DNA from: Acaryochloris marina S15
Lineage (GTDB): Bacteria; Cyanobacteriota; Cyanobacteriia; Thermosynechococcales; Thermosynechococcaceae
Direction: 5' to 3'
DNA: 32,000 nt
Assembly (NCBI RefSeq): GCF_018336915.1
Contig: NZ_CP064925.1
Location: 210,001 to 242,000, forward strand
The position numbers were made by a program, and so were the translations under genes. Shown in pieces: positions 6,209-32,000 of the stretch (within the stretch, counting starts at the first letter, position 1; each line of letters opens with the position of its first letter). A model generated the notes under the pieces. It was not told the origin of the DNA, ran no database searches, and worked only from the letters and a program-made list of their open reading frames with translations.

Positions 6209-6269
6209 AAAGCTGTTTACCTCTCTGCCAATGCATAATTTTTGTTGCTAAAGCTAAAAGCCTTTATCC

Positions 6270-10574: not shown

Positions 10575-11147
10575 CTAGAAAAACACCAACTTCGCAATCG
10601 CCCCCTCAACCTGCTCATCGGTGACTTCCAAGTACCCCGACAGTGCCGCCAGCGTCCGATGTCCTGATATCCGCTGAATATGCTTCGTCGGCACTCCAGC
10701 GTTGTGCATCTGGGTCAGAGCTGTTCGTCTGAAGCTATGAGTGCTAAACCCTTCCAATCCCACCCGACCAAAGGCTTGCCTCAAGATTCGATCTGCTGAA
10801 CTCACCCGCAAGTGAGAACGGCCATGCCGACCGGGGAACAGATAGGTGCGAGTCAGATCAGGTGCATAGGTTACCAAATAGTCATGCAACTGGGGATGCA
10901 TCGGTACTTCTCGCGTATCTCGCTTGCCCTTCGTCTGATGCCACCGGAATAGCACTGCTGATTTTGGGCCACTGGCGTTGATCACGTCACTGGTGAGCAG
11001 CGTACAGGCTTCACCGATCCTGCATCCGGTGTAGAGGCACACACCAAAGAGGGCCAGATCGCGGGGCTTGCTCAGACCATCACTGAAGAGGTGTTGAATT
11101 TGCTCTGGGGAAAGTACCCCAGCCTTACCGAATCGATCTTGTTTCAT
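10575..11147 (-). CDS. Short tyrosine recombinase (phage-integrase catalytic domain only)
   Basis: 190-aa ORF. It has the Arg in YTGCRIGEA, HSFRRT (HxxR), SGHRT and the terminal SGYLEV (catalytic Tyr). There is no N-terminal core-binding domain. Confidence 0.85.
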   Translation of the reverse strand: MKQDRFGKAGVLSPEQIQHLFSDGLSKPRDLALFGVCLYTGCRIGEACTLLTSDVINASGPKSAVLFRWHQTKGKRDTREVPMHPQLHDYLVTYAPDLTRTYLFPGRHGRSHLRVSSADRILRQAFGRVGLEGFSTHSFRRTALTQMHNAGVPTKHIQRISGHRTLAALSGYLEVTDEQVEGAIAKLVFF

Positions 11148-16647: not shown

Positions 16648-16893
16648 ATGGCCAGTATCGACAAAATTGTTGCCAAAATGGGGAATAATCCCGCTGGGAT
16701 TAAGTTCTCAGATTTGTGCAAGGTTTGCGATCACTACTTCGGGGAAGCTCGTCAGACTTCTGGAAGCCATCGGGTTTACAAGACTCCCTGGCAGGGTGAT
16801 CCTTTCGTCAATATCCAATCCAAGAAAGGGATGGGCAAACCCTACCAGGTCAAACAAGTGTTAGCCGCGATCCAAAAGCTGGAGTCAATGTGA
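16648..16893 (+). CDS. hicA: HicA-family toxin (mRNA interferase)
   Basis: 81-aa ORF. FSDLCKVCDHYFGEARQTSGSHRVYKTPWQGDPFVNIQSKKGMGKPYQVKQVLAAI shows the GSH...P...Q.......YQVKQV HicA-like pattern. Its stop overlaps the hicB start (ATGA). Confidence 0.75.
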   Translation: MASIDKIVAKMGNNPAGIKFSDLCKVCDHYFGEARQTSGSHRVYKTPWQGDPFVNIQSKKGMGKPYQVKQVLAAIQKLESM

Positions 16894-17222
16894 TGGATGC
16901 CAAATACTATACCTACCGGGTCATCTGGTCCCAAGAAGATGAGGAGTTTGTGGGCTTGTGCGCCGAATTTCCAAGTTTGAGCTGGCTGGATGAAGATCAA
17001 CAGTCTGCTTTCGCTGGCATTGTGGAATTGGTCAAAGATTGTATTGAGGATTTAGTGGCACAGGATGAGCCTATCCCTACCCCTCTGTCTAAAAAACAAT
17101 ACAGTGGGAAATTTATGGTGAGAATTCCACCTGAGCAGCATCGTCAATTGGCTATCCAAGCAGCAGAGCAAGGGATTAGCCTCAACCGCCTAGCTAGTAG
17201 CAAATTGGTATCTGGGGGTTAG
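16890..17222 (+). CDS. hicB: HicB-family antitoxin (N-terminal HicB fold plus C-terminal RHH-type DNA-binding tail)
   Basis: 110-aa ORF. YTYRVIWSQEDEEFVGLCAEFPSLSWLDEDQQSAFAGIVELVKDCIEDLVAQDEPIPTP is followed by YSGKFMVRIPPEQHRQLAIQAAEQGISLNRLASSKL. Confidence 0.85.
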   Translation: MMDAKYYTYRVIWSQEDEEFVGLCAEFPSLSWLDEDQQSAFAGIVELVKDCIEDLVAQDEPIPTPLSKKQYSGKFMVRIPPEQHRQLAIQAAEQGISLNRLASSKLVSGG

Positions 17223-17231: not shown

Positions 17232-17400
17232 CTGACTTTTCCTGCTAAGTCTTCCAGTGCTTAGTGGGTGGTATTTGTAGCCCTTAGTCTCAGCCTTGGT
17301 TAAAGTAAGTGCAGTGATACCCAGGGAGCATCTAATGAGTCCAGAGCGTTATGAGCAAAATTTTGGAACCTGTGAGTTGGGTGATCAACGATTGAATCAC

Positions 17401-17409
17401 CGTGCATTC
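17401..17409. repeat. Left copy of the 9-bp target-site duplication CGTGCATTC of the IS256-family element
   Basis: An identical 9-mer occurs at 18784-18792. Joining the flanks restores the IS4 transposase reading frame (..RLNHRAF|SIGRS..). Confidence 0.85.
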
Positions 17410-18783
17410 CGTAGTGTCCCGATTTATTCGCCATGAGTTGAAATTCCTGAAATGCTGTATTAATAGTGACTTCAGAGCATTTCTTGATGAACATTGCCCA
17501 GCGCGAACAACAGATTATCCGCATCCAATCCCAAAGCTCCTATGCCTCTATTAACGAAGCCCTGGAAGCAACCCTACGCCTGGAAGCAAGCCAAGTCACC
17601 CAGAAAATAATAGAGGCAGCACTAGACGAAGAAGTGCAAGCCTATCTATCCCAACTTCAAGGGACTCGACCTCGGCGCTCAGGTTATTATCAACGGGTTC
17701 TAGATACGCAGTATGGCAGGATCCCTCAACTGTCTGTCCCTAAACTACGTAAAGGGAACGCAGACCGAGAGTGGCAGATTTTAGAACGTTACCAACGTGC
17801 CCTTGGCAGTCTCCTCGATTTTTGCCTCGGCCTGTATGTCATGGGTTTATCGCTTCGGGACTTGCAAGAAGCTCTCTATGAGATTCTAGGAGCAGTCTTA
17901 TCCGTTAATGCCATTAACCGAATTACGCTAAAAGCTCAGAAGCAAATGTTCCAAAGGCGTCAGACTCGTCTTGAGGAAACCCCTCCTATTCTGATTGTCG
18001 ATGGTGTTTGGGCTAGTGTTCAGTGTTCCTCAGAAGACTTTTGGGAAGACCAAGCTGGGCATATCCGGAAACTACGCCATGCAGAAGACCGAGTCATTCT
18101 AGTCGCTATGGCAGTGTGGCCCGATGGCACCCAAACGGTGCTTCATTATGAAATGGCGACGCAAGAATCGGAGGCAGCTTGGTCACTATTCTTTGCGCAT
18201 CTGTGGCAACGGGGATTGCAACCCTATTCGGTGAAGTTGATTGTGAGTGATGGTACGACTGGGTTGCCTAAGGTGATTCGTGCTCTGTTTCCCCTCGCAC
18301 AACATCAACGCTGCATTACCCACAAGGTTCGAGCCATGCTGCGGCATTTAGGCTATGGGCAATTGTCGTACCTGGATGCGCAAGGACAAGAGCTTTCACT
18401 TCCTGAAGCTAAGAAACAGCGGTATGCACAAATTCAACATGATGCCTACGCCATCTATAAAGCGCCCACCTGGGAAGGGGCAGTTATTTCATTTCTGGTG
18501 TTTGAGAAAAAGTGGACAGACATCGAACCTGACGCCGTCAGAACCTTTATCAACGATTGTGCCCTGACTTTGAACTTCTATGATTTTGATGCATCTCTTC
18601 ACTCACTCATTCGAACCTCAAATGCACTCGAGCGGTTGTTCCGGGAATTCCGAACCAAGGCCGATGAAATTGGTGCGTTCCCTAATGAAGAGAGCTGTTT
18701 AGCAATTCTCTTCCTCGTTTTTCGTAGGGATCATGCCAAGCATGATCGGCTCAAAAACCGTGGCGAATAAATCGGGACACTAA
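17410..18783 (+). mobile_element. IS256-family insertion sequence, apparently intact, nested in the IS4 transposase gene
   Basis: 1374 bp. The terminal inverted repeats share TAGTGTCCCGATTTATTCGCCA: the left end is cgTAGTGTCCCGATTTATTCGCCA, and the right end TGGCGAATAAATCGGGACACTAa is its reverse complement. The 9-bp duplication CGTGCATTC flanks it, and it contains a single uninterrupted transposase ORF. Confidence 0.9.
17466..18770 (+). CDS. IS256-family (mutator-type) transposase
   Basis: 434-aa ORF from the GTG at 17466; the ATG at 17487 (MNIAQREQQ...) is the more likely start. Family hallmarks are RPRRSGYYQRVLDTQYGRI..L.VPKLR, ILIVDGVW (D), LIVSDGTTGL (D), QRCITHKVRAML, and IRTSNALERLFREFRTKADEIGAFPNEES (E). 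Confidence 0.9.
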   Translation: MTSEHFLMNIAQREQQIIRIQSQSSYASINEALEATLRLEASQVTQKIIEAALDEEVQAYLSQLQGTRPRRSGYYQRVLDTQYGRIPQLSVPKLRKGNADREWQILERYQRALGSLLDFCLGLYVMGLSLRDLQEALYEILGAVLSVNAINRITLKAQKQMFQRRQTRLEETPPILIVDGVWASVQCSSEDFWEDQAGHIRKLRHAEDRVILVAMAVWPDGTQTVLHYEMATQESEAAWSLFFAHLWQRGLQPYSVKLIVSDGTTGLPKVIRALFPLAQHQRCITHKVRAMLRHLGYGQLSYLDAQGQELSLPEAKKQRYAQIQHDAYAIYKAPTWEGAVISFLVFEKKWTDIEPDAVRTFINDCALTLNFYDFDASLHSLIRTSNALERLFREFRTKADEIGAFPNEESCLAILFLVFRRDHAKHDRLKNRGE

Positions 18784-18792
18784 CGTGCATTC
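18784..18792. repeat. Right copy of the IS256 target-site duplication CGTGCATTC
   Basis: See 17401-17409. Confidence 0.85.
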
Positions 18793-20119
18793 AGTATCGG
18801 TCGTTCTCTGAGCGAGAAATTTGGTCAAGCCTTATCGACCGTATTTGAGACTGGGAAAGCCCTCAAACGGTCTTACGAGTTTTCGCAAATGTGAAAACCA
18901 GCTTCGCTAAGATTATTTCTCCTCATTGTTCTATGACCGCTTGTAGCGTATCGTCGCAAGAGATGACCTTGAGTGTTGGCGACACCACCTTCCTCGACTA
19001 TGAAGGTATCAAGCAGAAGCGCCAAGGCTATGGTCCCAAGGCAGAGGGGGAATGGATTATTACTCCATAGTGCCTTAGCCGTTGACCCTGAGCAGGGCCA
19101 ACCCTTGGGTTTGTTATGGCAAAAAGTGTGGAATCGTCAGCATCGTCCCAAGCCCCCGAAGAATGAAACGTCCCGACAAAAGAAGAAACGTCAGACCAAA
19201 GCGCGTAAAACTGCTCGGGAGCGTCTATTTGAGGAAAAAGAATCCTATCGTTGGGTGGAAGCACTGCACGCAGTGGAGAAAGCTGTGGGTCCTTCAACTC
19301 GTATCATTCATGTCTTTGACCGAGAAGGAGACATTGCTGAAGTCTTTGAACGACTCAATACCCTAGACAATACGGGACTCGTGGTTAGAGCCTCTCATAA
19401 TCGTTGTCTAGAACACGATCCTAATCGCCTGTGGGAAAAGCTGGAAGCCCAGAGTGTTCAGTTCGAGTATGAGATTGACTTACCTAAAACGAAAGGCCGG
19501 AGTGCGCGCACGGCTAAGTTAGCTGTGAGATGTTGTCTTGTTGAACTTCAAAGACCAGCCCGACTAGCTGCCAGTCAACCCCTTCAGGTTTACGCTGTCT
19601 ATGCAACAGAAGTAGCCCCACCTGAAGGGGAAGAACCAGTGTCATGGATGTTGCTCACTAGTGAAGTCGTGACAACAGTAGAAATGGCCCAAACCATTTT
19701 GCGTTGGTACACCTACCGTTGGCGAGTTGAGGAGTATCACAAAGTTCTAAAATCGGGCACTCAGGTGGAGCGATATCGGTTGGCATCTGAGGGAATGAAA
19801 ACCTTATTGGGATTCCTGTGTGTCACTGCTGTAGAGCTGTTGCGTGTGACTTATTTAGAACGAACACAACCTCAATTACCTGCACAAGATGTCCTCACGC
19901 CTTTACAGATCAAAGTTCTCATTGCCAAGACCCCGAAGGTACCTAAAACATTAACGGTGGCATGGGCTGTTCAAGCAGTTGCACGACTCGGGGGATATCT
20001 GGAGCATCGTCGAAACACACCGATTGGAATTCAAGTCCTGTGGAAAGGGTGGGCGAAGCTCAATGACCTGATTGAAGGCTGGCTGTTAGCTACCCAGGAG
20101 ACTTAGCAGGAAAAGTCAG

Positions 20120-20128
20120 ATGAAGTAC
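20120..20128. repeat. Right copy of the IS4 target-site duplication ATGAAGTAC (doubles as the start of the second hicB-like gene)
   Basis: See 17223-17231. Confidence 0.9.
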
Positions 20129-20320
20129 AAGGGCTATGAATCTGTGGTTGAGTTCGATGCTAATGATCAGATCTTCTTTGGTCGCGTCTTGGGGATTCGC
20201 GATGTCATTGCATTTGATGGTCAGACGGCGGATGAGTTAAAGCAATCTTTTCATAACGTCATTGATGATTATTTAGCCGACTGTCAGCAAGTGGGTAAAG
20301 ATCCTTCTCAATCAAAATAG
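20120..20320 (+). CDS. Second HicB-like antitoxin, N-terminal domain only (C-terminal DNA-binding tail missing)
   Basis: 66-aa ORF. MKYKGYESVVEFDANDQIFFGRVLGIRDVIAFDGQTADELKQSFHNVIDDYLADCQQVGKDP is the classic HicB-like N-terminal domain. The family normally continues with ..FSGKF..R.....H plus an RHH tail, but here a stop follows KDPSQSK and the 3' end overlaps the convergent gene. Confidence 0.7.
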   Translation: MKYKGYESVVEFDANDQIFFGRVLGIRDVIAFDGQTADELKQSFHNVIDDYLADCQQVGKDPSQSK

Positions 20321-20850
20321 CTCATTGTTTCAACCTCAAGCTCCTTCAAGGCTTGATTCACCTCCTCCAGGTCAAACGCTTTCGGGTCAAACTCACTCCC
20401 AACCCATTCCATTCTTTCCTCATACTGTGAATGTCGGGGATTCTTCAGTACCCTCAGCAGATGTGCATACCCCCAGTCGCCACCACAGTCTTCCGGTGGA
20501 CAAGCCCGCTTCCCTGCCAGACATACTGGATAGGTTTGTTCAGGCTCCCTCACTAACTTTTTCTCCACCTTGATTTCGTGCTGCCACATATACCCGAAGT
20601 CATAGAGGTAGCCGAATGAGAATAAATCATCTTCAATCAGCTCTGCTAACGTCATGGCTTCGTCTTCGCTATCCGAGAACTCATGGAGATGGTAGCCTTC
20701 CCAACCCATCACAACTTGCAACACGGAATGGAGCTGCGCCAGTGTCATCGTCTCTGGGACTTGAATCCGTCTCCAGACTTGGGGGCGGACACCCAACAGC
20801 GTGATCTTCAATTGATAGACGCTGGTTACTGCATTCGATGGTGCCTCCAC
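20308..20850 (-). CDS. Plasmid pRiA4b ORF-3-like (PRiA4_ORF3 family) protein, possibly N-terminally truncated
   Basis: 180-aa ORF from a GTG start. YQLKITLLGVRPQVWRRIQVPETMTLAQLHSVLQVVMGWEGYHLHEF ... YLYDFGYMWQHEIKVEK ... CLAGKRACPPEDCGG.WGY is the family signature. The frame stays open upstream (YPEPLFATLPDEVPWQIGQQAIATEV) without an ATG. Confidence 0.85.
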   Translation of the reverse strand: MEAPSNAVTSVYQLKITLLGVRPQVWRRIQVPETMTLAQLHSVLQVVMGWEGYHLHEFSDSEDEAMTLAELIEDDLFSFGYLYDFGYMWQHEIKVEKKLVREPEQTYPVCLAGKRACPPEDCGGDWGYAHLLRVLKNPRHSQYEERMEWVGSEFDPKAFDLEEVNQALKELEVETMSYFD

Positions 20851-21215: not shown

Positions 21216-21764
21216 ATGCCCGTTTCTATCCCACCCCAAACCCTGAAACCCCAAAGTAATGTCACGAGCTACAGCACAAATCCCACCGATCGCCCCACCC
21301 TCGAAAGACTCTCAAGCCTTACTCCTAGGTTGACCCAAGATGATCTTGTCGCCCTTGGCATTGCTGCACTCTTTGAAGGCTATGAACCTAGGGATGTGAC
21401 CGTGGATTTTGGCCGTGGCTCCTATACTTTCAACCAATGCATCGACTTGATCCAAGACCTCTCCCAAGCTGGCAAGGTTGCCCTGGTGCGGAGTATCTCT
21501 GAGCTGTTGGCGGCATCGCACATCTCGCCTGATATAGCTCTGCCAGTCCTGCCCCCTGTGCCAGATCCCCATCTGGAGAATGTCTGGTACGTGATGTCGA
21601 TTGAACAAGCGATCGCATTTGCCAAGATTGGAAGGCTTGATCCAGCGATCCTAACCCTGTTCTGCTCCGGTCAGTCGCTCAAGGTGATTCCCCCTGATCT
21701 GCTAGCTGCTGCTCGTGAGAATCTACCTGGATTGATGGAAGCTTTGAAAGGAGAGGACCAATGA
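21216..21764 (+). CDS. Hypothetical protein
   Basis: 182-aa ORF with no family recognised. Its stop overlaps the ATG of the next small ORF (ATGA at 21761-21764), which suggests a real, translationally coupled gene. Confidence 0.5.
   Translation: MPVSIPPQTLKPQSNVTSYSTNPTDRPTLERLSSLTPRLTQDDLVALGIAALFEGYEPRDVTVDFGRGSYTFNQCIDLIQDLSQAGKVALVRSISELLAASHISPDIALPVLPPVPDPHLENVWYVMSIEQAIAFAKIGRLDPAILTLFCSGQSLKVIPPDLLAAARENLPGLMEALKGEDQ
21609..21616. repeat. HIP1 octamer GCGATCGC
   Basis: Exact match. Confidence 0.9.
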
Positions 21765-21871
21765 CCCAGGTGCTAACAGCCCAAGTCCTTTTCCCTGCGA
21801 AGGAATGGGACACCCAGTATGACGGCACAACCCCTATCAGCAACAACAAAAGTTGGAGGGTTAGATACTGA
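21761..21871 (+). pseudogene. 5' stump of a gene translationally coupled to 21216..21764, cut off by IS debris
   Basis: MTQVLTAQVLFPAKEWDTQYDGTTPISNNKSWRVRY*. From about 21838 the sequence is the reverse complement of a transposase N-terminus, so the native ORF is truncated after about 26 codons. Confidence 0.4.
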
Positions 21872-21921
21872 CTTTCACTCAGATGAGCACGGAGAGTAGT
21901 TTGGTAAGATGCAGGGAACAT
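21838..21921 (-). pseudogene. N-terminal fragment of about 28 codons from a cyanobacterial IS4-family transposase
   Basis: MFPASYQTTLRAHLSESQYLTLQLLLLL matches the conserved N-terminus recalled for cyanobacterial IS4-type transposases (M.P..YQ..L...L...QYL.L..L...LQ). Similarity is lost after about aa 28. The rest of track ORF 21679..21921 is read-through into unrelated DNA. Confidence 0.45.
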
Positions 21922-22086
21922 TTTTTGAGATGGGAGTACAATCTACTCCCTATTCTTTTACCCTACTATTTTCTCAATCTCCTGCCATCGTATAGCCTAG
22001 GGCGACCTTGTTCCCCGTTAAGATTCATATTAGGTTTAACAGCCAATATTTCAGGTCAACTGGATAAAAACACGAAATGAGTTGCT

Positions 22087-22102
22087 AAATAGGGACACTA
22101 AC
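22087..22102. repeat. Solo IS256-like terminal repeat remnant
   Basis: AAATAGGGACACTAAC matches AAATCGGGACACTAAC at the right end of the intact IS256 copy (18769-18784) at 15 of 16 positions. It lies 17 nt downstream of the Rhs stop. Confidence 0.4.
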
Positions 22103-22119: not shown

Positions 22120-25100
22120 TCATCCTAAGCTAATGTCAAAGGTACCTGGTACTGGTATTGAATAACCTGTAAGATAATCGGCTCCAATATCTATCCCAGA
22201 GAAAAATCCAGAAAAATTACCAGTTCCGAAACCGATTCTCCCAAAAGTCAATGATACCCCTCCAAGTTCGGAACCAGCACTTATAGCTGCATTGAAAAAT
22301 GTAGCTCCACCAGTCAATGCAAGTTGACTTATACCTAAGAAACCTGGTGTTCTAATATCCCCTTCAGTAGATGCATATCCAATAGGTATTGGGCTTAATG
22401 ATAAACCCAGCAAAGGAAGAGCCCAAACCCCTCTAGCCTGTTCTATAACCCCCGGTGATGTTTCGTATGGCTCTGATTCAGCAAATATGAAAGCTCCTCC
22501 ACCTGCTGGTACAGGAAATGGTAATGCGACGCTTGAGCCTGTGGCGATTACCAAATCTGCTTTCCAGTCGACATCTTCCCTGAACCCCCCCGCCAAACTG
22601 CCAACGGATTGACCTATAGAGATTATCTGAGATAGAAGAGTCGCCCCCAGTACAGCCTGCAAAACAGAGACATTCCCACTAGGATCAACGAAGTTTGTTG
22701 GATTACCATTGGCATAAATGTATCGATTAAGAGTAATGGGTCTTTGAAAAAATCCTTCAAATTTATCACGGCTTGAAAATCTAGCATTAGCAACATCCAG
22801 ATATCTTGCTCTCAAATAATCTAAATCTAGATTTCCATCCTTCTGCTCACCAGCAAACAAGTATGAGTTCTCTGTATTCCCACTTTGAGAAAGAACTTGA
22901 CCGAATGCATCATAAAGGTAGGAATCAGAGACATCTCCACTTTCAGAACTCAAAGCCCGTGTACTCCCTAGGCCATCAACGTGATAGAACGATCGCTCTC
23001 CCTGCCGATCCTGTGAAATTAAGTCATTCCCGTGAACATAGGAAACCTTGATAACACCGCCAGGCGTATATTCTTCTAGAACTTGGGCATAGGGACGATT
23101 CTTATCAATCAGGAAGCGAGTCTCTTCCCCATTGGCCGTTTGTGCCACCCGAATACCATCCGAATCATACTGATTGGTGACATCATTGACCCCATCCCCA
23201 TCGGTATCCGCTGCAATCAGACGATTCTCAACATCCCAATCATAGGCAACCGACTCCGTACTATTGCTCTTGCCTAATGTATTGCCGTTGTCATCATAGG
23301 TATAGGTTGTCACCTCACCATCGGTCGTTTCAGCTATCAATCGATCATTCACATCGTAGATATAGGTCGTTACACCATCTATCGAATCATCACGAGTCTC
23401 TCGGTTGCCGACTGCATCATAGGTATAGGAGATAGTGCGGCTGGGGTCAGTCGTACCAGGGTCAAAGATAGTCTCTTGTGTCAGTCGATCCAGATCATCA
23501 TAGGTATATTCAACCCGGCGTCCGTCTTGTTCTTCCACGGCGATACGGTTGCCTGTCAAATCCAAGGTATAGCGGAAACTGTTGATGATGCCGCTAGGAC
23601 CACTGTTCTCCAGATAGACCAATCGATTCAACTCATCAAACTCACGGATTTCAACCGTGCCATTCGGAAATTCCGTTCTCTCTAGGTTGCCAACGGCATT
23701 GTAGAAATAGGTCGTTACTCCTGCATCTGGATCCGTTACCGTCTTCAGACGATTTTGAGCATCAAAGGTATAAGAGGTTTGTCCAGAGGGAATGGTGACG
23801 GAGGTGCGGTTTCCGGCAATATCGTAGGTGTAGCCAATCTCCCGCCCATCCGGGTCGATCCGCTTCGTGAGACGATTCTGCTCATCGTACTCATAGGTCG
23901 TCGTTCCCCGAGCATCCGTTACACTTTCACGCTGACCAATGAGGGTGTAAGCATAGGTCGTACTGGCAGAGCCTGGGAAGTCTTTAGTGATTAGCCGATC
24001 GCGCTCATCATACTCATAGACAATCGTCTCGCCATTAAAGTCCGTGGTGCTAATAACATTGCCGACTTTGTCATAGTCAGAACTAGAGCGTTGCCCTAAG
24101 GCCAGCACCGTGGCCGTCCGCCGACCGAGACCATCATATTCAAAGGTAGTGACATGATCGTTGGCATCTGTTTGGGTAATCAAATTACCCAGCTCGTCAT
24201 AGGTATATTCAGTCCGCTGATTCAGGGCATCCACAACAGCCGTTAATCGACCCACGGCATCATATTCAAACTGTGTTGTCTTGCCTTCCTGGTCTGTACG
24301 ACCCACCAATCGGCCTGTCTCATCAAACTCAGAAGAGACCGTCGTACCATCGGCAAACTCCTGACGAAGGGGGCGGCCGAAATCGTCATAGAAGAATGTA
24401 GTGGTATTCCCCAAGGGATCGGTCTGGGTTTGTTGCCGACCGGCATCATCATAGGTAGTGGTAACTGTGGGGTTATCACTGTCATCTGCGGGGGTCTCAT
24501 CCGGTAAGAGAGTGGAGACTAATCGTCCCAACTTGTCATAGACAAATTTGGTCTGATTGCCCCGTTGATCAATCTCAGCGATCACCCGACCCGCGAGGTC
24601 ATACTCCGTTCTAGTTCGGGGGTTATCTGCATCATCCGGTGTGGCATCGGGCAGAATCGTTTCTATCAGACGACCCACCTTGTCATAGACAAATTGGGTT
24701 TGCCGACCCAGTTCATCAATTTCCGTAATCACTCGGCCTACAGCATCATATTCCGTGCGGCGGCGAGCATTATCAGTATCATCATTCGGCGTCGCATCGG
24801 GCAGAATTGTCTCCGTGAGCTGCCCCCGATCATCGTAGATAAACTTCGTTACCCGTCCTTCGGCATCAATTACCTGCACCCGATTGCCCACAGCGTCGTA
24901 TCGGGTCTCAGTGATTCCGCCTTCTGGGTCCGTCACCTTGACCAATCGGCCTTCGGCATCATATTCCGAAATTGTGACTAAAGACCGCTCTCCCGTTGGT
25001 GTGGTTTGGTTGCGAGTTTCAGTCAGCTGATTGCCGTTGTCATCGTAGGTAAAGGTGGTGACATTCCCCGCTGCATCCACTTGGGTAAGGACATTGCCAG

Positions 25101-28100
25101 AGCCATCATAGGTAAAGATATTAGATCCAGTTGCATCTCCAAAGCTGGCCAGGTTGCCCCTCGCGTCATAGTTCAGGGTCGTGGTGCCATTGCCTTGACC
25201 TGCAATCTGAGTCAAGTTGCCCCGCAGGTCATAGGTATTCGTGGTGGTGTTCCCCAAGGCATCGGTAGAGGCTGCCAGCACACTAAAGGGAAGGCTGCTC
25301 TGACCCGTAATCTTAGCGACTAATGACGTGCCAAAGTCAATCCGGTCATAGGTATTAAAGGTGACGTTCCCCAGAGCATCCGTCACCGTCAGGCTATTGC
25401 CAAAGGCATCGTAGGTAAAAGTAGTGGTGCTGCCTTCAAGGTCTATGCCATCAAAGACCGTTTCCGTGAGCATGTAGTTATTGGCATCATAGGTCCGCTC
25501 AATGACGCCACCTTCTGCATCCACTTCCCTAACCACATTGCCCCGCTGATCGTATTCAAAGACGGTGGGGTTAACCAATTGATCCCGAATCGTTTCCGTG
25601 AAGTTATCGGGATTATGGACCAGTTCAATAAATTCGCCACTGGCATCAATGAGTTTCACTAACCGACCCAGATCATCATATTCACTTCTCACCCCCGAAC
25701 GATTGAGGGGATCAATCACCTCCGTCAAGAAGTGATCTCGCTGGGGTTCGTCATACTCATACTGAGTGACGTTGTCCTCCCGATCCGTGAAGCTGACTAA
25801 ATCTCCAGTCGCGTTGTAGGCATATTCGATCCGCTCCCCTAAGGGGTCAATCACCGCGACAATTCGACCTTGGGCATCTCGTTCAAATGTGACGCTCTTA
25901 CCGTTTGAGCTGACAATGCCGTTGTCTGTGAAGGTGAGGGTATTGTCATTGTTGTCTGCAACCTGGCGCAGGTCCCCAGTGGTGCCATTGATTTCATAGG
26001 CCAGACCATCCTGGGTGGTGAGTATAAAGCGATTGCCAAAGACGGGAGAGAGGGGGTTATAGGCTAATCCCGTTGAGTAATCAAACAGTTCACCCGCTGC
26101 ATTCACAGATAGATCCGCATTGTCCACGGAGAGCTGACTGGTCACCCCAGAATCTGAGACAAAGGTGGGCTTGAAGATTCCCAAGAAGGACCCTTGTAAT
26201 CCAGGGGCAAGAGTGGGCTGGAAGGTGAAGCCTTCTCGCTGGCCACCCGGCAGGGTGACATAGACCCTAGCTCCACTAAAGAAGGGGTTGTAGATCAGGT
26301 CCGCTTCAAAGCCTGATTCAGCCACGTTGGTTCTCAGGTCCGTATCGCTCAGTTCTAAGCGCCAACCATATCCCAGTTCATCGGTGGTATTGGCATTGAG
26401 GCTGTCATAGGTGCGAGCGACGGTGATCGGGATGCCGGAGACGGGAATGACAAGGTCTGTGAAGGACAGCTGGAAGTTCCCCAGTTTCAAATCACCTGCA
26501 ACACTGACCTCTTGCTCAACGGTAGCTTCATTACCGCCCGTATCCGTAGCAAATAGTCGCAATGTATAGGCGTCATTGGCCAAAATCGAGGGGTCGAATT
26601 CACCCAGCAGGCCATCGGTGATCGGATTTGTGCCTTCTGCTAGAGTGACAAAGTTATCCGTGCCTGATAGAGCATAGGACAGGGTGTAGGACAGCAGATT
26701 GGTATCTGTTACTGTCCCTAATATATCGGTAGCAGTCGTGAAGATATCACCCGGCGTGAGTGATGTGAAGGCCACAACTGGGGCATCGACATCATTGGGG
26801 TCAATGCCAGTGAGGGTGACAGTATCAGTGCCGATATTACCAGCAGCGTCAGTAGCCGTGGCTACAGCATCGATTGCCCCCAGAGCTTCGACAGTGACGG
26901 TGGCTCGACCCGTGGCATCCAAGGCAATTGGGGTGCCATCAATGCTCAGGCTCAACTGCTCAACGCCGACATTATCAGATGCTTGGACAACCAAGGTGAC
27001 GGTATCTCCCAAATCAACCTGCCCACTTTGAGATTGGAATAGGCTGACTAAGGGAGCTTCCTGATCGACCGTGACTACCAAGTTATAAGTCTGGGTAAAT
27101 GAAGCTCCAAAGGGATCTGAAACCCTAATTTCAATAGATTCAGTCCCTAAATCAGTAGTGGTGGGTGACCATCTGACTCGCCCAAAATTATCTACAGTCA
27201 TCCCATTGGGTGCCTGGATAAGTTCGATGCTCAGGGGATCATTATTGGGATCTATTGAACGGACATTATATTCATAGGTGGCCCCTACTGCAGCTGAAAC
27301 AATCGGAGCTGAGATAATTTCCGGGGCGGCATTATCCCGAACAGCCAAGTTGTATCTTTGAGTACTGCTTAATCCCGATGAATCGCTTGCCACAACTGTG
27401 ATCTCAAATTGCCCATTTGAAGGGGGCACCCACTCTAATAATCCAGAGTTTGAGTCAATCGTCATTCCAGGTAAAGCATTAACTAAGGAAAATTGGATTG
27501 AATCACCATCTGGATCAGTAGCCCCGACGTCATATTGATACAGTGCACCTGCTGAAGCTGCGAACGTAGGTGTTGAATCAATCCTAGGGGCTTGATTGGG
27601 TGCAGTAGCTAGCACCACGACTGAGTAACCGATTCCCGCTATATTCCCTTGATCATCAGTCACCAGAACATCAACTAACTGTTCACCGATTTGGGATGTA
27701 GTAGGAGTCCACTGAATCTGCCCCGTTGCAGTGTCAATAGTCATATTGCTGGGGGCATTCACAAAAGAGTAAGTCAGGAGGTCATTATCTATATCGGTCG
27801 CGATAATTTGATCGGTATAGGGTGTGTCAGCAGCACCAACGGTTAAGGGTGCAGAAGTGATGATGGGAGGTGTATTTAATCCCCGAACATTAAGGGTAAA
27901 ACTTTGAGTGTCGGCTCCCCCTTGGGCATCCAACACCTCGATCACAATGTCATAACTGCCCACCTGATCTAGTGTGGGTTGCCATAGAACCGTTCCCTGA
28001 CGTTCGTCAATGGACATGCCCGTGGGTGCATTCAAAAAACGCCAGATCAGTGGATCACCATCAGGATCAAAGGCTTGCGCGTCATAAGCATATTGTTGAT

Positions 28101-31100
28101 TAGCGTTAGCTATAACATTGGGTGTTGATTCAATGACAGGTGACTCGTTTATTGATTGAGAGGTAACCTCAATCTCAAAATTTTGTTGAACCAGTCCACC
28201 CCGACCATCATCAACGATCAGTTGTACTGTATTCAGCCCAATCTGATTCCCGGTGGGATTCCAAGTAATGACATTCGAATCATTCAGACTCATCCCAGTA
28301 GGGGCAGCATTCAACGTAACTGCGAGTGGATCACCATTCGGATCTGAAGCAATTAATTGATAAAGATAGGTCCCACCTAAATGGATCATTTCCCGAGGCG
28401 TGGACTGAATGACCGGTAACTGATTAGTCGAGTTGGCAACAACATCAATCGTAAAAGTTTGCTGAGTCTCTAAGCCAACAGGAATCCTGGCAGAAATAGT
28501 AATCTCATTTGGCCCTATCTGATTGACATTTGGAGTCCAAGATACCAGTCCTGTATCAGAGTTGATCTGGACTCCGATGGGTGCATCAATCAATTCAAAC
28601 GTAAGGTCAGTATTGCGAGCATCTTGAGCCACAATCTGGTATTGGTAAGGTAGCTCAACACTGGCTGGTCCTGGCGGAGTTGAGGTGATGAGAGGTGCAG
28701 TAAAGGCTGAAGGGACATTAAGGCTGATATCTTGTATGGCGACACCCCCTTTACCGTCGTTGACCTCTAATAAGGCTGTACTAATCCCCTCCTGAGCAAT
28801 CCAAACAATCGTTCCAGTTCTGGGATCGACTGTCATTCCTGGTGGGGCTGCCAATAACTCAAAAGTTAGGGGGTCGCCATCAGGATCTGAAGCCACTGCA
28901 TCGTAACGGAATAGTTCACCTGCGGTGATATCAGTCGGTGGAGCACTGGTAAAAGTGGGTTTAGAGTTTATCCCCTGGGATTCAACATTGCCAAAATCAA
29001 TATCGCCAATGGTTTCAGAACCTTGAATAGTGATTTCAAAGGTATTATCTCCGGGGGCTGTTTGAGTCCAGCCAGGTTGCAATTCTTCGGCAATGACATA
29101 AGTACCAGGAGCCAAATTATCAAAGAAATAGTTACCTTGAACATCAGTGGTAGTAAATCGTTCGCTCGAATCACGAATTCCATTGAGATTCTGATCAATG
29201 TAAATGATCCAGCCTTCAAGTCCTGGTTCGGGTATAGGATCAATACCAGCTCCTGGAATAGTACTGGTAATTAAGTGATTAACGTTAGCAAATTCAACAC
29301 CGTTAAAAGTGTCATTAGGCAAAGGAGGACTCCCAAATCCACGTAATGGAACACTGGGTGAACCAAACACTGATGTTGATAAAAATCTACCGTTAGGTTG
29401 CTCTCCATTAGGAATCTCTGAGTAAGTGGTGGTGGATGAGCGTAACTCAGTTGTGATGACTGGATTCGGACTATTAAAGAGAGTTCCTCCCTGCTTTAAA
29501 TCAATATTCTGTGTCGAATAAATCCCTTCAAACGTTTCAAATCCAAAGAAGGTTGCAACTTCATTAACATGTTGGACGATCAGGGAACTACTGGAGTCGT
29601 CTGTACCCAGGACAATTCCGCCACCATTGTCAAACAAGTTTACGGCTTGATTAATGGTTAAGTTCTCTTCATCCTGTGTAGAATGAATTCGCCATGCTAA
29701 TCCATCAAAGATGAAGTTGGGATGTTCTGAGCTGAATTCCTGTAAAGCATTTAAATCTTCATCCGTAAAGCTGAAAGCTGGATTTGCAGAGGTTATGCCA
29801 AATCCATCATTCCAAATCCAAACCTGATTGATATCGTCATTTGTAGCAAGGGTATTTGCAATGGTGCCAGGATTTAGTAAGGATCCAACAATTACTTCAT
29901 AACCCAAATTCTCTAAAACAGGCAAAACCGTCCCATTTTCTACATTAACAGCGACATCGCCTCTTAAAAGGAGGATTGTGTCTTCATTTGGATCACTTGG
30001 TTTATTAGTTCCTCCTTCTTGGAATCCACGTTCTCCATCACGATCAAGATCATGGAATTTAGTTCCTTGAATGACACCACTTGAGGTAAGGTCAACCACC
30101 TCTAGAATGAATTGCTGGGTCTCAACCCCTCCTCGATTATCCTCAACCTGAATTTCAACTGTTTGTATGCCAATATCTTGAGTCGTGACATCCCAAGAGA
30201 TCTGACCAGTGTCTGAGTTGATCACCAAACCCAAAGGTGCTGTCAATAGTGAGTAACTGATTACATCTCCATCAGGATCGAGTGCATCAATATCTGTCAA
30301 GTATGATGTACCCGCAAAAGCTTTTAAGTCAGGAGAACTAATAATAATGGGTGCATTATTTCCTGCTTCAGCTTGAACAAAAATCCCATAGGCTTGTTCA
30401 GCAGTTCCACCCTGACTATCATCAACAAGAACGACAACTTCATTAAAACCTAACTGGGTATTATCCGGTCTCCAACTGATAAGCCCTGTGTTTGAATCAA
30501 TAGACATATTTTGGGGACCACTCACTATTGAAAATGTGAGTGAGTCTCCATCAGCATCTTCTGCAGATAACTGATATTGGTAATCTGCTGAGACATTTGC
30601 ATCAACGATAGGGATTGACTTAAAGCTAGGAGGCCGATTTGGAGGTGCCTCAATTACTCCAAGGGTATAGTCTTGCGAGGTGATACCACCCCGACTATCA
30701 CTGACTTGTACCGTGATGTCATGATTAGCAATATCAGCTACAGTGGTGTCCCAACTGATCACACCCGTCGTTGGTTCAATGGTCATGCCATCGGGGGCAA
30801 TCAGGAGTTCATAGGTGAGGGTATCTCCGTTTGGATCAGCTGCATTAACGTCGTAGGTGTAGGGCAACCCAGCAATCGCTTCTAGTCTGGGGGTTGATTC
30901 AATGACTGGATTGGAATTTAATTCCGACAGCACAACGAAATCATAAGAAAATTGCACACCCTCTGGGTTTCTAAAGCTAATGGTTCTTGGTCCAGTCAGG
31001 TCATCAGGATTAAACTTGCCTGCGGTGACTAAACTTGTGAAATCAAAGTAAGGGCGTCCATCTGCGGTCAGACCGTCCGCATCAACAACCCGCACAGTGG

Positions 31101-32000
31101 GGTTACTCAGATTTGTCACCGCTACCAGGAGGGGACCATCTAAACCAATGGTGCTAATGTTGCGTAGGGTCACCTCAGTAGTCAGGATCTGGCTTTTCTC
31201 ATTGAAGGAAGTTTGTTGATACTCAACTTCGGTACTGAAAGTAACATCCGACAGTAGTGAAAAGTCGATGGGGTCTACTCCCGTAACAAGGGGAGTATCT
31301 GGAATCGCGGTAACAGGATCACTACCAGTGCTATCCTGAACCTCAATATCATTAATCTGAACGCTGGTCGTGACATCACTGTCATCATTGACTAACCGAA
31401 AGACCAAGGTTGCTTCAGTCCCTGGTGCAAGACCTGCCAAATTCACGATAACGGTCTGTCCCTCCAGACGCACTCCTGGAGCTAACTCAGCGGGGAACCC
31501 CTCCGTCATATTTAAGAAGGCATCTTGGTTAGAACCAATGGTGTGAATCAAAGAGTTGCCATTCCCATCCACAAGAGCAACTTCAAACGCATCGTTGATA
31601 AAATCTGGATCGCTGGTATCAAAGATGAGATCACTGTAGGTAAAGCGCAGCTCAGCAGTATTACTGGGAATCGTAATGGCTTGTTCCGCTGTCGTTGTAA
31701 AGTTCGTTCCTTCCTGTAGAACAATCAGGGAGGAAATATTAAAGGAGATGGTTTGGGAATCAGTCCCACCTTGGCCATCACTGACGGTATAGCTAAAGGC
31801 ACCTGCGGCACCTGAGGTCCCTGGTTGAGGGAGAAACTCTAAACTCTCCAACTCATTGAGACTCAGAGTTTGCCCTAAGGTTAAAGTCGTTCCATCAGCC
31901 AACCTTACAATCCCTTGATCTGCCAAGGGTAGCTGGGCAACTGTGATTGTAAGAACATCCCCATCAACATCAGTAGGGGCAGTGATATCTAGAGGAGCCA
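22120..32000 (-). CDS. Giant Rhs/YD-repeat polymorphic-toxin protein with He_PIG/cadherin-like repeat arrays; the N-terminus lies beyond the right edge
   Basis: The track ORF (3268 aa) starts at a TTG, but the frame stays open to position 32000 (..APLDITAPTDVDGDVLTITVAQLPLADQGIV..). It contains ten Ig/cadherin-like repeats of about 92 aa, an SdrD-B-like domain, Ig-like domains, about 1,270 aa of YD repeats (e.g. YDxxGRL, YxYDxxGN), the Rhs core end ...LDYLRARYLDVANARFSSRDKF...LNRYIYANGNPTNFVDPSGN, and a 183-aa tip. Confidence 0.95.
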   Translation of the reverse strand, partial: APLDITAPTDVDGDVLTITVAQLPLADQGIVRLADGTTLTLGQTLSLNELESLEFLPQPGTSGAAGAFSYTVSDGQGGTDSQTISFNISSLIVLQEGTNFTTTAEQAITIPSNTAELRFTYSDLIFDTSDPDFINDAFEVALVDGNGNSLIHTIGSNQDAFLNMTEGFPAELAPGVRLEGQTVIVNLAGLAPGTEATLVFRLVNDDSDVTTSVQINDIEVQDSTGSDPVTAIPDTPLVTGVDPIDFSLLSDVTFSTEVEYQQTSFNEKSQILTTEVTLRNISTIGLDGPLLVAVTNLSNPTVRVVDADGLTADGRPYFDFTSLVTAGKFNPDDLTGPRTISFRNPEGVQFSYDFVVLSELNSNPVIESTPRLEAIAGLPYTYDVNAADPNGDTLTYELLIAPDGMTIEPTTGVISWDTTVADIANHDITVQVSDSRGGITSQDYTLGVIEAPPNRPPSFKSIPIVDANVSADYQYQLSAEDADGDSLTFSIVSGPQNMSIDSNTGLISWRPDNTQLGFNEVVVLVDDSQGGTAEQAYGIFVQAEAGNNAPIIISSPDLKAFAGTSYLTDIDALDPDGDVISYSLLTAPLGLVINSDTGQISWDVTTQDIGIQTVEIQVEDNRGGVETQQFILEVVDLTSSGVIQGTKFHDLDRDGERGFQEGGTNKPSDPNEDTILLLRGDVAVNVENGTVLPVLENLGYEVIVGSLLNPGTIANTLATNDDINQVWIWNDGFGITSANPAFSFTDEDLNALQEFSSEHPNFIFDGLAWRIHSTQDEENLTINQAVNLFDNGGGIVLGTDDSSSSLIVQHVNEVATFFGFETFEGIYSTQNIDLKQGGTLFNSPNPVITTELRSSTTTYSEIPNGEQPNGRFLSTSVFGSPSVPLRGFGSPPLPNDTFNGVEFANVNHLITSTIPGAGIDPIPEPGLEGWIIYIDQNLNGIRDSSERFTTTDVQGNYFFDNLAPGTYVIAEELQPGWTQTAPGDNTFEITIQGSETIGDIDFGNVESQGINSKPTFTSAPPTDITAGELFRYDAVASDPDGDPLTFELLAAPPGMTVDPRTGTIVWIAQEGISTALLEVNDGKGGVAIQDISLNVPSAFTAPLITSTPPGPASVELPYQYQIVAQDARNTDLTFELIDAPIGVQINSDTGLVSWTPNVNQIGPNEITISARIPVGLETQQTFTIDVVANSTNQLPVIQSTPREMIHLGGTYLYQLIASDPNGDPLAVTLNAAPTGMSLNDSNVITWNPTGNQIGLNTVQLIVDDGRGGLVQQNFEIEVTSQSINESPVIESTPNVIANANQQYAYDAQAFDPDGDPLIWRFLNAPTGMSIDERQGTVLWQPTLDQVGSYDIVIEVLDAQGGADTQSFTLNVRGLNTPPIITSAPLTVGAADTPYTDQIIATDIDNDLLTYSFVNAPSNMTIDTATGQIQWTPTTSQIGEQLVDVLVTDDQGNIAGIGYSVVVLATAPNQAPRIDSTPTFAASAGALYQYDVGATDPDGDSIQFSLVNALPGMTIDSNSGLLEWVPPSNGQFEITVVASDSSGLSSTQRYNLAVRDNAAPEIISAPIVSAAVGATYEYNVRSIDPNNDPLSIELIQAPNGMTVDNFGRVRWSPTTTDLGTESIEIRVSDPFGASFTQTYNLVVTVDQEAPLVSLFQSQSGQVDLGDTVTLVVQASDNVGVEQLSLSIDGTPIALDATGRATVTVEALGAIDAVATATDAAGNIGTDTVTLTGIDPNDVDAPVVAFTSLTPGDIFTTATDILGTVTDTNLLSYTLSYALSGTDNFVTLAEGTNPITDGLLGEFDPSILANDAYTLRLFATDTGGNEATVEQEVSVAGDLKLGNFQLSFTDLVIPVSGIPITVARTYDSLNANTTDELGYGWRLELSDTDLRTNVAESGFEADLIYNPFFSGARVYVTLPGGQREGFTFQPTLAPGLQGSFLGIFKPTFVSDSGVTSQLSVDNADLSVNAAGELFDYSTGLAYNPLSPVFGNRFILTTQDGLAYEINGTTGDLRQVADNNDNTLTFTDNGIVSSNGKSVTFERDAQGRIVAVIDPLGERIEYAYNATGDLVSFTDREDNVTQYEYDEPQRDHFLTEVIDPLNRSGVRSEYDDLGRLVKLIDASGEFIELVHNPDNFTETIRDQLVNPTVFEYDQRGNVVREVDAEGGVIERTYDANNYMLTETVFDGIDLEGSTTTFTYDAFGNSLTVTDALGNVTFNTYDRIDFGTSLVAKITGQSSLPFSVLAASTDALGNTTTNTYDLRGNLTQIAGQGNGTTTLNYDARGNLASFGDATGSNIFTYDGSGNVLTQVDAAGNVTTFTYDDNGNQLTETRNQTTPTGERSLVTISEYDAEGRLVKVTDPEGGITETRYDAVGNRVQVIDAEGRVTKFIYDDRGQLTETILPDATPNDDTDNARRRTEYDAVGRVITEIDELGRQTQFVYDKVGRLIETILPDATPDDADNPRTRTEYDLAGRVIAEIDQRGNQTKFVYDKLGRLVSTLLPDETPADDSDNPTVTTTYDDAGRQQTQTDPLGNTTTFFYDDFGRPLRQEFADGTTVSSEFDETGRLVGRTDQEGKTTQFEYDAVGRLTAVVDALNQRTEYTYDELGNLITQTDANDHVTTFEYDGLGRRTATVLALGQRSSSDYDKVGNVISTTDFNGETIVYEYDERDRLITKDFPGSASTTYAYTLIGQRESVTDARGTTTYEYDEQNRLTKRIDPDGREIGYTYDIAGNRTSVTIPSGQTSYTFDAQNRLKTVTDPDAGVTTYFYNAVGNLERTEFPNGTVEIREFDELNRLVYLENSGPSGIINSFRYTLDLTGNRIAVEEQDGRRVEYTYDDLDRLTQETIFDPGTTDPSRTISYTYDAVGNRETRDDSIDGVTTYIYDVNDRLIAETTDGEVTTYTYDDNGNTLGKSNSTESVAYDWDVENRLIAADTDGDGVNDVTNQYDSDGIRVAQTANGEETRFLIDKNRPYAQVLEEYTPGGVIKVSYVHGNDLISQDRQGERSFYHVDGLGSTRALSSESGDVSDSYLYDAFGQVLSQSGNTENSYLFAGEQKDGNLDLDYLRARYLDVANARFSSRDKFEGFFQRPITLNRYIYANGNPTNFVDPSGNVSVLQAVLGATLLSQIISIGQSVGSLAGGFREDVDWKADLVIATGSSVALPFPVPAGGGAFIFAESEPYETSPGVIEQARGVWALPLLGLSLSPIPIGYASTEGDIRTPGFLGISQLALTGGATFFNAAISAGSELGGVSLTFGRIGFGTGNFSGFFSGIDIGADYLTGYSIPVPGTFDISLG
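22123..22671 (-). other. Rhs C-terminal variable (toxin) domain: 183 aa, glycine-rich and hydrophobic, no His or Cys, unrecognised family
   Basis: It starts immediately after the DPSGN boundary (codons 22672-22686): VSVLQAVLGATLLSQIISIGQSVGSLAGGF...GGATFFNAAISAGSELGGVSLTFGRIGFGTGNFSGFFSGIDIGADYLTGYSIPVPGTFDISLG. By my count it has about 33 Gly, 0 His, 0 Cys and 1 Lys. The DNA is visibly more AT-rich than the Rhs core. Confidence 0.8.
22672..26500 (-). other. Rhs/YD-repeat shell plus Rhs-associated core (approximate bounds)
   Basis: It begins near LKLGNFQLSFTDLVIPVSGIPITVARTYDSLN...GYGWRLE and ends at FVDPSGN. YD motifs are dense throughout. Confidence 0.85.
27065..28975 (-). repeat. Array of seven He_PIG/dystroglycan-type cadherin-like repeats (protein level, about 92 aa each; approximate bounds)
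   Basis: The recurring unit is xPxIxSxP...xxYxYxxxAxDPDGDxLTFxLxxAPxGMTIDxxTGxIxWxPxxxQxGxxxVxxxVxDxxGGxxxQxFxLxV. Confidence 0.8.
28985..29235 (-). other. SdrD B-like / Cna-B-type beta-sandwich domain (approximate bounds)
   Basis: GLEGWIIYIDQNLNGIRDSSERFTTTDVQGNYFFDNLAPGTYVIAEELQPGWTQTAPGDNTFEITI. Confidence 0.7.
29236..30084 (-). other. Inserted domain of about 280 aa between the repeat arrays, GATase1/DUF4350-like by motif (approximate bounds)
   Basis: DTILLLRGDVAVNVENGTVLPVLENLGYEVIVG...FSFTDEDLNALQEFSSEHPNFIFDGLAW...AVNLFDNGGGIVLGTDD...HVNEVATFFGFETFEG. Confidence 0.4.
30085..30920 (-). repeat. Array of three He_PIG/cadherin-like repeats (approximate bounds)
   Basis: NSNPVIESTPRLEAIAGLPYTYDVNAADPNGDTLTYELLIAPDGMTIEPTTGVISWD... 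plus two further units of the same pattern. Confidence 0.8.

Follow-up and report, generated by a model that had tools for sequence, protein, structure and literature searches.

The analyzed window is a stretch of 32,000 nucleotides (nt) from Acaryochloris marina S15 (contig NZ_CP064925.1, positions 210,001 to 242,000, forward strand). Its minus strand carries a large open reading frame (ORF) encoding a giant Rhs protein; the stop codon is located at 22120-22122, and the translated frame stays open to the end of the window. The complete carrier protein (P0001) comprises 4780 amino acids (aa), and its ORF is intact. Analysis of the deduced protein sequence revealed Laminin_G_3, DUF4114, and Big_9 domains, many He_PIG repeats, and a YD shell, the last matched as TEN_YD-shell on the full protein. 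This immunoglobulin (Ig)-repeat and Rhs part occupies 22672-32000 (minus strand) and extends past the window. The subject of this study is the C-terminal tip of the carrier, residues 4598 to 4780 (22123-22671, minus strand), a candidate toxin domain. The initial annotation of this DNA had described a tip of 183 aa following the motif DPSGN, with one Lys and neither His nor Cys, and had suggested that it corresponds to no known toxin family. The length, the residue counts, and the quoted sequences proved correct by translation. Searches of Pfam, NCBIfam, and the Protein Data Bank (PDB) sequences gave no match to the tip, either as a single sequence or as a family profile, and the Pfam scan returned no enzymatic toxin family.

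The last 793 aa of the carrier contain RHS/YD repeats, which were recognized by PF05593 (E = 1.9e-69, 13 stretches) and TIGR01643 (E = 1.4e-56). The Rhs-associated core domain, the C-terminal plug with the protease motif, was matched by TIGR03696 (E = 1.1e-16) at residues 530 to 609 of this 793-aa fragment (22672-22911, minus strand) and ends 1 to 2 residues before the tip. The core end reads ...SSRDKFEGFFQRPITLNRYIYANGNPTNFVDPSGN, and the tip follows directly after ...NFVDPSGN. The Rhs aspartyl autoprotease motif has the general form DPxG-x18/19-DPxG, and DPSGN (22672-22686, minus strand) is its second half. In the first half, DKFEG (within 22672-22770, minus strand) stands in place of DPxG: the Asp is kept and the Pro is replaced. 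The Asp of DKFEG lies 27 residues before the Asp of DPSG, versus 23 residues in the comparison with PMC10684867; relatives of the tip have DPFxG. By analogy with Tse5 from Pseudomonas aeruginosa, in which the cut falls at DPxG-L1168|I1169 (PMC10684867), cleavage is predicted to occur after the Asn, at DPSGN|V. A PAAR domain was not detected in the examined part of the carrier.

The tip contains 31 Gly, one Lys, and no His, Cys, or Met. The Gly enrichment that the initial annotation had noticed is real (31 residues versus 17.4 expected from the other 4597 aa, P = 0.001); its count of about 33 was slightly too high. Asn and Asp are depleted in the tip compared to the remaining carrier. The grand average of hydropathicity (GRAVY) of the tip, +0.586, exceeds that of every 183-aa window of the remaining carrier (mean, -0.20; maximum, +0.50), and its charged fraction of 0.104 is the minimum of the entire protein. 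The other 4597 aa of the carrier contain no Cys, 0.6% His, and 1.0% Lys, and compared to this background the scarcity of His (P = 0.31) and Lys (P = 0.45) in the tip is within chance. Because the carrier itself is so poor in these residues, their absence or scarcity in the tip is without significance. The earlier argument from the missing His and Cys is therefore not tenable, and relatives of the tip contain both residues. The traits that distinguish the tip are Gly enrichment, hydrophobicity, and few charges.

A break in base composition had been placed at the DPSGN boundary. The GC content at third codon positions (GC3) does drop, to 0.283 in the tip versus 0.441 in the core, with 3.5% of the core windows equally low. 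The drop starts about 100 codons upstream of the proposed location, and the total GC content is unremarkable (0.451 in the tip versus 0.476 in the core; 23% of the core windows are lower). In 60-codon windows starting 120, 90, and 60 codons before DPSGN, GC3 was 0.37, 0.25, and 0.20, respectively; it was 0.42 over the first 60 tip codons and 0.18 to 0.23 over the last 90. The low-GC3 core end preceding the tip (22672-23030, minus strand) is a possible part of an exchanged cassette. The pattern would fit an exchanged unit that includes approximately 100 codons of the core end; orphan cassettes of the relatives described below carry 60 to 90 codons of core end.

An exhaustive phmmer search with the tip against 1.84 billion representative proteins yielded ten matches, namely, P0001 itself, six real relatives (P0002, P0004, P0005, P0007, P0008, and P0010; E = 2e-11 to 4e-4), and three repeat-driven matches. 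Two of the latter, P0003 and P0009, showed many weak matches to repeated Gly/Thr-rich units; the third, P0006, was rejected as repeat-driven on its 12 matched stretches alone. In five of the six relatives, those retaining core sequence, the match starts directly after the DPxG of the Rhs core; P0008 is an N-terminally truncated orphan. A seventh relative, and thus an eighth member counting the window tip, was found inside the metagenome contig L010. Pairwise identity among the members ranges from 18 to 40%. The contigs of the family span 37 to 60% GC, and one member originates from the cyanobacterium Argonema antarcticum.

No Pfam family was significant for any of the seven members scanned, and phmmer and family-profile hmmsearch against all PDB chains revealed no related chain at E ≤ 10. 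The family was not found in the GTDB representative genomes (two contig scans) or in the JGI metagenome collection (two pattern scans), and tblastn of the tip against 72,556 plasmids gave no match. A word-seeded homology search, the candidate list of which was flooded by Gly-rich words, found nothing with the tip alone or with a trimmed 8-sequence alignment and only two members already known with a 7-sequence alignment. Identity with the toxin domains PT1 to PT9 of a systematic screen (10.1101/2021.10.19.465003) is unlikely because the tip family was not found in the GTDB representatives and plasmids searched; those domains are widespread in sequenced genomes and are set apart here by distribution, not by sequence. 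By its sequence, the tip belongs to a rare, undescribed, and unnamed family of putative toxin domains. The possibility of a new family had already been raised by the initial annotation, and it is supported by the eight members.

The family alignment revealed 18 conserved positions, 12 of which are Gly or Pro (G57, G74, G89, P109, G121, G147, G149, G151, G159, G163, G169, and P173); W36, S66, D161, and S171 are conserved as well. The window tip retains 16 of the 18 positions. No His, Cys, Lys, or Arg is conserved in the family alignment. Two Cys residues, one directly after S66-E67 (SEC or SDC, corresponding to residue 68 of the window tip) and one in the C-terminal tail (PC), occur only as a pair: five members have both, and three, among them the window tip, have neither. 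This co-occurrence suggests a disulfide bond, and hence folding or action outside the cytoplasm, that was lost in some cyanobacterial members. Since five members carry both residues, the lack of Cys is a trait of the lineage and not of the family.

Homologous cores were found to carry other tips. Using the last 600 aa of the carrier as the query, in which the tip starts at residue 418, tblastn against the plasmids gave many Rhs homologs, with mostly cyanobacterial sequences among the best matches listed, at 45 to 56% identity and alignments that stop at residues 416 to 427. The homolog from Nostoc UHCC 0870 has the same DPSGN|V at its core end and then a tip of the colicin E3/pyocin S6 type. 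The homolog from Acaryochloris 'Moss Beach' has a different tip, followed by an SMI1/KNR4 protein; SMI1/KNR4 is a classic immunity family. The Argonema cassette is positioned in an array with other Rhs cassettes, including one of the ADP-ribosyltransferase type. In another contig (L004:1264-4107; also L005 and L006), two orphan family cassettes follow a tyrosine recombinase gene, and each is in turn followed by a small ORF with two transmembrane (TM) segments. Genes for tyrosine recombinases are present in the window as well, at 10575-11147 and at 14600-15574, both on the minus strand.

Comparison of the metagenome contigs L010 and L011 (L010:6266-9321 and L011:3156-4998) revealed 99.7 to 99.9% identity except for an insertion of about 1 kb in L010. 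The insertion encodes a second, divergent family tip and a 110-aa ORF with two TM segments, and a 188-nt piece of the core end is duplicated. As a consequence of this insertion, the older tip, of the P0007 type, and its 173-aa neighbor are now a downstream orphan. The pair of contigs is a natural snapshot of Rhs tip displacement creating an orphan cassette. Duplication of the core end with orphaning of the older cassette is the textbook mechanism for Rhs tips. The initial annotation had read the tip as an exchangeable C-terminal domain downstream of an autoproteolytic boundary. This view is supported by the displacement and by the homologous cores, which align up to the boundary and carry other tips. 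On these sequence comparisons, we assign the tip to the polymorphic toxin modules with high confidence.

The hydrophobic character of the window tip is shared by its relatives. GRAVY values in the family range from +0.22 to +0.59, with 9 to 15% charged residues, even without the N-terminal helix described below; in five further Rhs tips from comparable loci, GRAVY lies between -0.54 and -0.09, and 16 to 20% of the residues are charged. A candidate immunity gene for a membrane protein lies immediately downstream of the tip in four to five relatives. The encoded proteins comprise 79 and 85 aa in L004 and 110 aa in L010, with two TM segments each, and 173 aa in L010/L011, with three TM segments. 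The same arrays contain three cassettes from outside the family, and the ORFs behind these have no or one such segment. In Argonema (L009:2182-3567), the downstream gene encodes a 461-aa protein in which a Ser/Thr kinase domain is fused to a C-terminal region with two moderately hydrophobic segments (Kyte-Doolittle [KD] values of 1.58 and 1.46). This kinase fusion is an unusual immunity candidate, if it is one.

AlphaFold2 prediction from the single tip sequence was uninformative, with a mean predicted local distance difference test (pLDDT) score of 39. With the 7-sequence family alignment, a pLDDT of 78 and a predicted template modeling score (pTM) of 0.72 were obtained. The resulting model consists of a helix at residues 2 to 27 (pLDDT, 46 to 56) and about ten strands of 9 to 18 residues, mostly with a pLDDT of 80 to 93. 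Consistent with strands, the period-2 moment of the family-averaged hydropathy exceeds the helical moment over most of residues 30 to 183. Residues 1 to 28 (22588-22671, minus strand) are hydrophobic (KD value of 1.81 over residues 1 to 19), rich in small residues, and predicted to be helical. The initial annotation had pointed to this stretch. A hydrophobic or amphipathic helix directly after DPxG[LN] also starts unrelated tips, namely, those of the Nostoc colicin E3-type protein, the 'Moss Beach' protein, a 574-aa protein in L010, and the ADP-ribosyltransferase cassette in L009, so the stretch is not diagnostic. Within the Tse5 shell, order is confined to the first 27 residues of the tip (PMC10684867). 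Residues 1 to 28 probably form a generic post-cleavage helix outside the toxin fold, and the active part is predicted to be a Gly-rich, charge-poor beta-meander of about ten strands formed by residues 31 to 183 (22123-22581, minus strand).

The initial annotation had named a toxin of the glycine-zipper type among the more likely kinds, next to membrane-inserting and pore-forming ones. Accordingly, the tip could be an alpha-helical glycine-zipper pore former or ionophore resembling the bundles of the CdiA-CT(EC93) type, Tse4, or the C-terminal toxin domain (CT) of Tse5. A GxxxGxxxG motif is present at G20-G28 within the predicted helix, and a run of five Gly residues spaced i,i+4 (G147-G163) is mildly unusual (shuffle P = 0.016). 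The tip is hydrophobic, and helical structures have been predicted or proposed for the known membrane toxins of Rhs and contact-dependent inhibition (CDI) systems (PMC9637101, PMC11630599). However, AlphaFold2 predicted strands over residues 34 to 182, including G147-G163, and the period-2 hydrophobic moment dominates in this Gly run. The seven GxxxG motifs of the tip are not an enrichment (shuffle P = 0.21), the conserved positions do not include G155, and in the relatives the N-terminal motif falls out of register; the helix in which it lies is common to unrelated tips. A Gly-zipper Pfam match was absent from the seven members, as was a sequence match to PDB chains. A helical zipper is therefore quite improbable. 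The predicted form is one helix and about ten strands.

Taken together, these results favor, with a probability of roughly 0.55, the reading that the tip is a non-enzymatic, membrane-acting, beta-rich toxin cassette of a new and rare family. A membrane-directed and probably non-enzymatic action is proposed because the family is hydrophobic and poor in charges, and conserves no His, Cys, Lys, or Arg, and because relatives are followed by genes for membrane proteins with two to three segments. The corresponding suggestion of the initial annotation is thus partly supported, by composition, conservation, and the downstream membrane genes of the relatives, and we hold membrane action without enzymatic chemistry with moderate confidence.

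The conserved polar residues allow for another explanation, an enzymatic toxin with a new beta-rich fold. The substrate of such an enzyme, for example a lipid, lipid II, or a membrane protein, would be embedded in the membrane or located in the periplasm. Catalysis would rely on S66, D161, and S171, together with E67 and D165, and the membrane immunity proteins would mark the site of action, not pore formation. S66, D161, S171, and W36 are conserved across members that share 18 to 40% identity, the model has a defined fold (pLDDT, 80 to 93), and an enzyme located at the membrane could also have membrane proteins as its immunity partners. However, Pfam, NCBIfam, PDB, and Foldseek searches gave no profile or fold match to any enzyme, and the residues His, Lys, Arg, and Cys are nowhere conserved. 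The predominance of Gly and Pro (12 of the 18 conserved positions) indicates structural conservation, and a composition with a GRAVY of up to +0.59 and about 10% charged residues resembles neither that of soluble enzyme domains nor that of the remaining Rhs tips examined. We regard an enzymatic tip as unlikely.

Several observations weigh against the proposed non-enzymatic membrane toxin. The AlphaFold2 model was built on just seven sequences and was read at the level of secondary structure and confidence values. Foldseek searches against PDB and BFVD revealed no significant fold neighbor (all E > 0.1). The weak list was headed by small beta barrels, VapB, Ail, OmpX, OmpW, and proteins like green fluorescent protein, with a best template modeling score (TM-score) of 0.38 normalized to the 109-residue VapB and at most 0.29 normalized to the model. 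The conserved W36, S66, D161, and S171 could be catalytic. DKFEG stands in place of DPxG as the first half of the protease motif, and the carrier belongs to a cyanobacterium without a known type VI secretion system (T6SS), a difficulty for delivery. Among the relatives, the hydrophobic segments of the Argonema kinase score below the usual threshold, the high-GC relatives (L001/L002 and L003) have no downstream membrane ORF, and the downstream membrane proteins show no detectable homology to one another or to anything in the window beyond one weak 28-aa match. No candidate immunity gene adjoining the window tip was found; its absence is the main weakness of a toxin-immunity reading at this locus.

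At the site where an immunity gene would be expected, comparison with Acaryochloris plasmids revealed insertion sequence (IS) debris (21835-22102) that starts 18 nt past the stop codon. It is composed of a 17-mer resembling an inverted repeat of the IS256 type (22086-22102), a repeat of 62 nt that several Acaryochloris plasmids share (22023-22084), and the beginning of an IS4-family element (21835-22022; about 190 nt, 92.6% identity), in which the transposase gene starts. In an independent assembly, the contig breaks 206 nt past the stop codon. An 80-aa ORF at 21679-21921 (minus strand) was considered as an immunity gene and rejected, since a transposase N terminus and an unrelated fragment are joined in it; its DNA is 92.6% identical to the IS4 transposase start, residues 1 to 19 are 100% identical to one Acaryochloris plasmid, residues 35 to 80 are about 60% identical to others, and it has one hydrophobic segment. 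The sole ORF of the window with two TM segments (28968-29243) lies out of frame inside the Rhs gene and was rejected as well. Outside the Rhs gene, the window contains no small multisegment membrane ORF and no homolog of the downstream proteins of the relatives.

Such a locus might also harbor an inactive tip, either a decaying or silenced cassette whose immunity gene was lost to IS activity or a nontoxic beta domain, e.g., a membrane anchor. This would agree with the IS fragments in place of an adjoining immunity candidate, with the richness of the region in IS elements, and with the two high-GC relatives that also have no downstream membrane ORF. On the other hand, the 4780-aa ORF is intact, and 16 of the 18 family-conserved positions are kept. 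The family is conserved across contigs of 37 to 60% GC, and the arrays in which it occurs are typical of toxin-immunity systems, with Rhs cassettes of the ADP-ribosyltransferase type and of other types as neighbors. With respect to an anchor, the TM-scores to outer membrane barrels are below 0.3, and the terminal aromatic beta-signal is missing. Inactivity of the tip at this locus is considered improbable.

For the favored non-enzymatic membrane toxin, the following course of action can be proposed. The Rhs aspartyl autoprotease would release the tip at DPSGN|V, and the YD shell would enclose it in a largely unfolded state, so that this very hydrophobic polypeptide stays in solution and does not harm the producer. 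After delivery to a neighboring cell, it would insert into the membrane from the periplasmic or outer side and dissipate an ion gradient or permeabilize the membrane without enzymatic chemistry. The cognate immunity protein would be expected to be a small membrane protein with two to three segments encoded just downstream, as in the relatives. More tentatively, the tip might represent the first beta-type membrane toxin among the polymorphic cassettes, in which a Gly-rich domain of about 150 aa, held by a disulfide in most members, would leave the Rhs shell and fold in or on the target membrane into a small beta-barrel-like ion-conducting structure that is blocked by two- to three-helix membrane proteins.

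Among known systems, Tse5 (PA2684/RhsP1) combines an Rhs shell and the pore-forming Tse5-CT with an immunity protein, Tsi5, that has two TM segments (PMC9637101, PMC10684867). The window tip resembles it in the Rhs carrier with a boundary related to the DPxG...DPxG type (DKFEG in the first half), in the hydrophobic tip of 150 to 180 aa without an enzymatic signature, in the separate N-terminal segment of about 27 residues, and, as far as its relatives are concerned, in the small putative immunity proteins with two predicted TM segments. It differs in that it has no sequence similarity to Tse5 residues 1169 to 1317, provided that the CT is part of the full-length Tse5 chains in the PDB. The structural predictions differ as well, being helical for Tse5-CT and beta-rich for the window tip. 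Furthermore, Tse5 is a PAAR/T6SS effector, whereas the carrier studied here is a 4780-aa Ig-repeat cyanobacterial protein without an adjoining immunity gene.

The CDI ionophores (CdiA-CT EC93 groups 1 to 6) are neutralized by two-helix CdiI proteins of 72 to 100 aa (PMC11630599). These toxins are likewise polymorphic, hydrophobic, and C-terminal, and the CdiI proteins diverge strongly between cognate pairs; the 79-, 85-, and 110-aa ORFs described here have no clear similarity among themselves either. They are carried by CdiA behind a VENN boundary and not by an Rhs protein behind DPxG, and no sequence relationship to the tip is known. Their predicted structure is a five-helix bundle behind an entry domain, in contrast to the one helix and about ten strands of the tip model. 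In the catalogue of polymorphic toxins by Zhang et al. 2012 (PMC3482391), Tox-WTIP is the only pore-forming toxin domain. Like the tip, this hydrophobic and presumably noncatalytic domain occurs on RHS proteins, and the G-x-S-[IV]-P motif of the tip family superficially recalls its W-x-[ST]-I-P. However, Tox-WTIP is described as spanning the membrane with two helices, the first of which contains RxxR and the second Wx[ST]IP. The tip family has neither such helices nor a conserved RxxR, carries Gly and not Trp before x-S-[IV]-P, and gave no Pfam match in seven members.

The small beta barrels, Rhodococcus equi VapB and the outer membrane proteins Ail, OmpX, and OmpW, share with the model an all-beta build of long antiparallel strands, a resemblance of class only; their Foldseek E values are at least 0.17, and those of the outer membrane barrels exceed 0.2. 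Unlike the outer membrane barrels, which have a C-terminal aromatic beta-signal, the family has variable and nonaromatic C termini. The tip also surpasses the other examined Rhs tips in hydrophobicity and has fewer charges. The glycine-zipper toxins (the Pfam Gly-zipper families, CdzC/D, and Tse4-like proteins) are marked by a conserved (G/A/S)xxxGxxxG motif in transmembrane helices, whereas the main Gly run of the tip lies in predicted strands.

Polymorphic toxins, including Rhs proteins, are a main source of new antibacterial activities. Most of the characterized tips are nucleases, deaminases, NADases, or ADP-ribosyltransferases, few are known to act on membranes, and unannotated Rhs tips are common. 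To our knowledge, the characterized membrane toxins of Rhs, CDI, T6SS, and type VII secretion systems are all predicted or thought to be helical. If the beta-type mode is true, it differs from all of them, and a beta-rich, Gly-rich module combined with membrane immunity would widen the known modes of contact-dependent membrane damage. The tip would also provide a compact module of about 150 aa for studying the storage and release of a very hydrophobic protein in an Rhs shell. The results also identify the giant Ig-repeat Rhs proteins of cyanobacteria as true polymorphic toxins with cassette exchange. The delivery system is known and the putative toxin domain is new within it; the practical importance is modest.

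Other features of the window lie outside the Rhs gene. Three adjacent genes at 2709-9731 (minus strand) encode an nSTAND1 NTPase of 785 aa, a CHAT-domain protein of 381 aa, and a 1153-aa protein in which a caspase-like Peptidase_C14 is fused to an alpha/beta hydrolase region; this trio looks like a conflict or cell-death gene cluster. An ORF at 16648-16893 (plus strand) overlaps a HicB-family gene at 16890-17222 (plus strand; Pfam E = 1.1e-15), and the two (16648-17222) probably constitute a HicA/HicB toxin-antitoxin pair. The adjoining stretch, 17232-20119, is a nested IS bounded by perfect 21-nt inverted repeats (17232-17252 and 20099-20119). It contains an element of the IS256/Mutator type, with a transposase gene at 17466-18770 and perfect 22-nt inverted repeats at 17412-17433 and 18761-18782, as well as a DDE_Tnp_1/Tn5-type transposase gene at 18973-20106. 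A short ORF at 20120-20320 (plus strand) resembles, by eye only, the N-terminal part of a HicB-like antitoxin. Between the IS nest and the Rhs gene, a full-length PRiA4_ORF3-like protein of a plasmid-associated family is encoded at 20308-20850 (minus strand; Pfam E = 7e-60).

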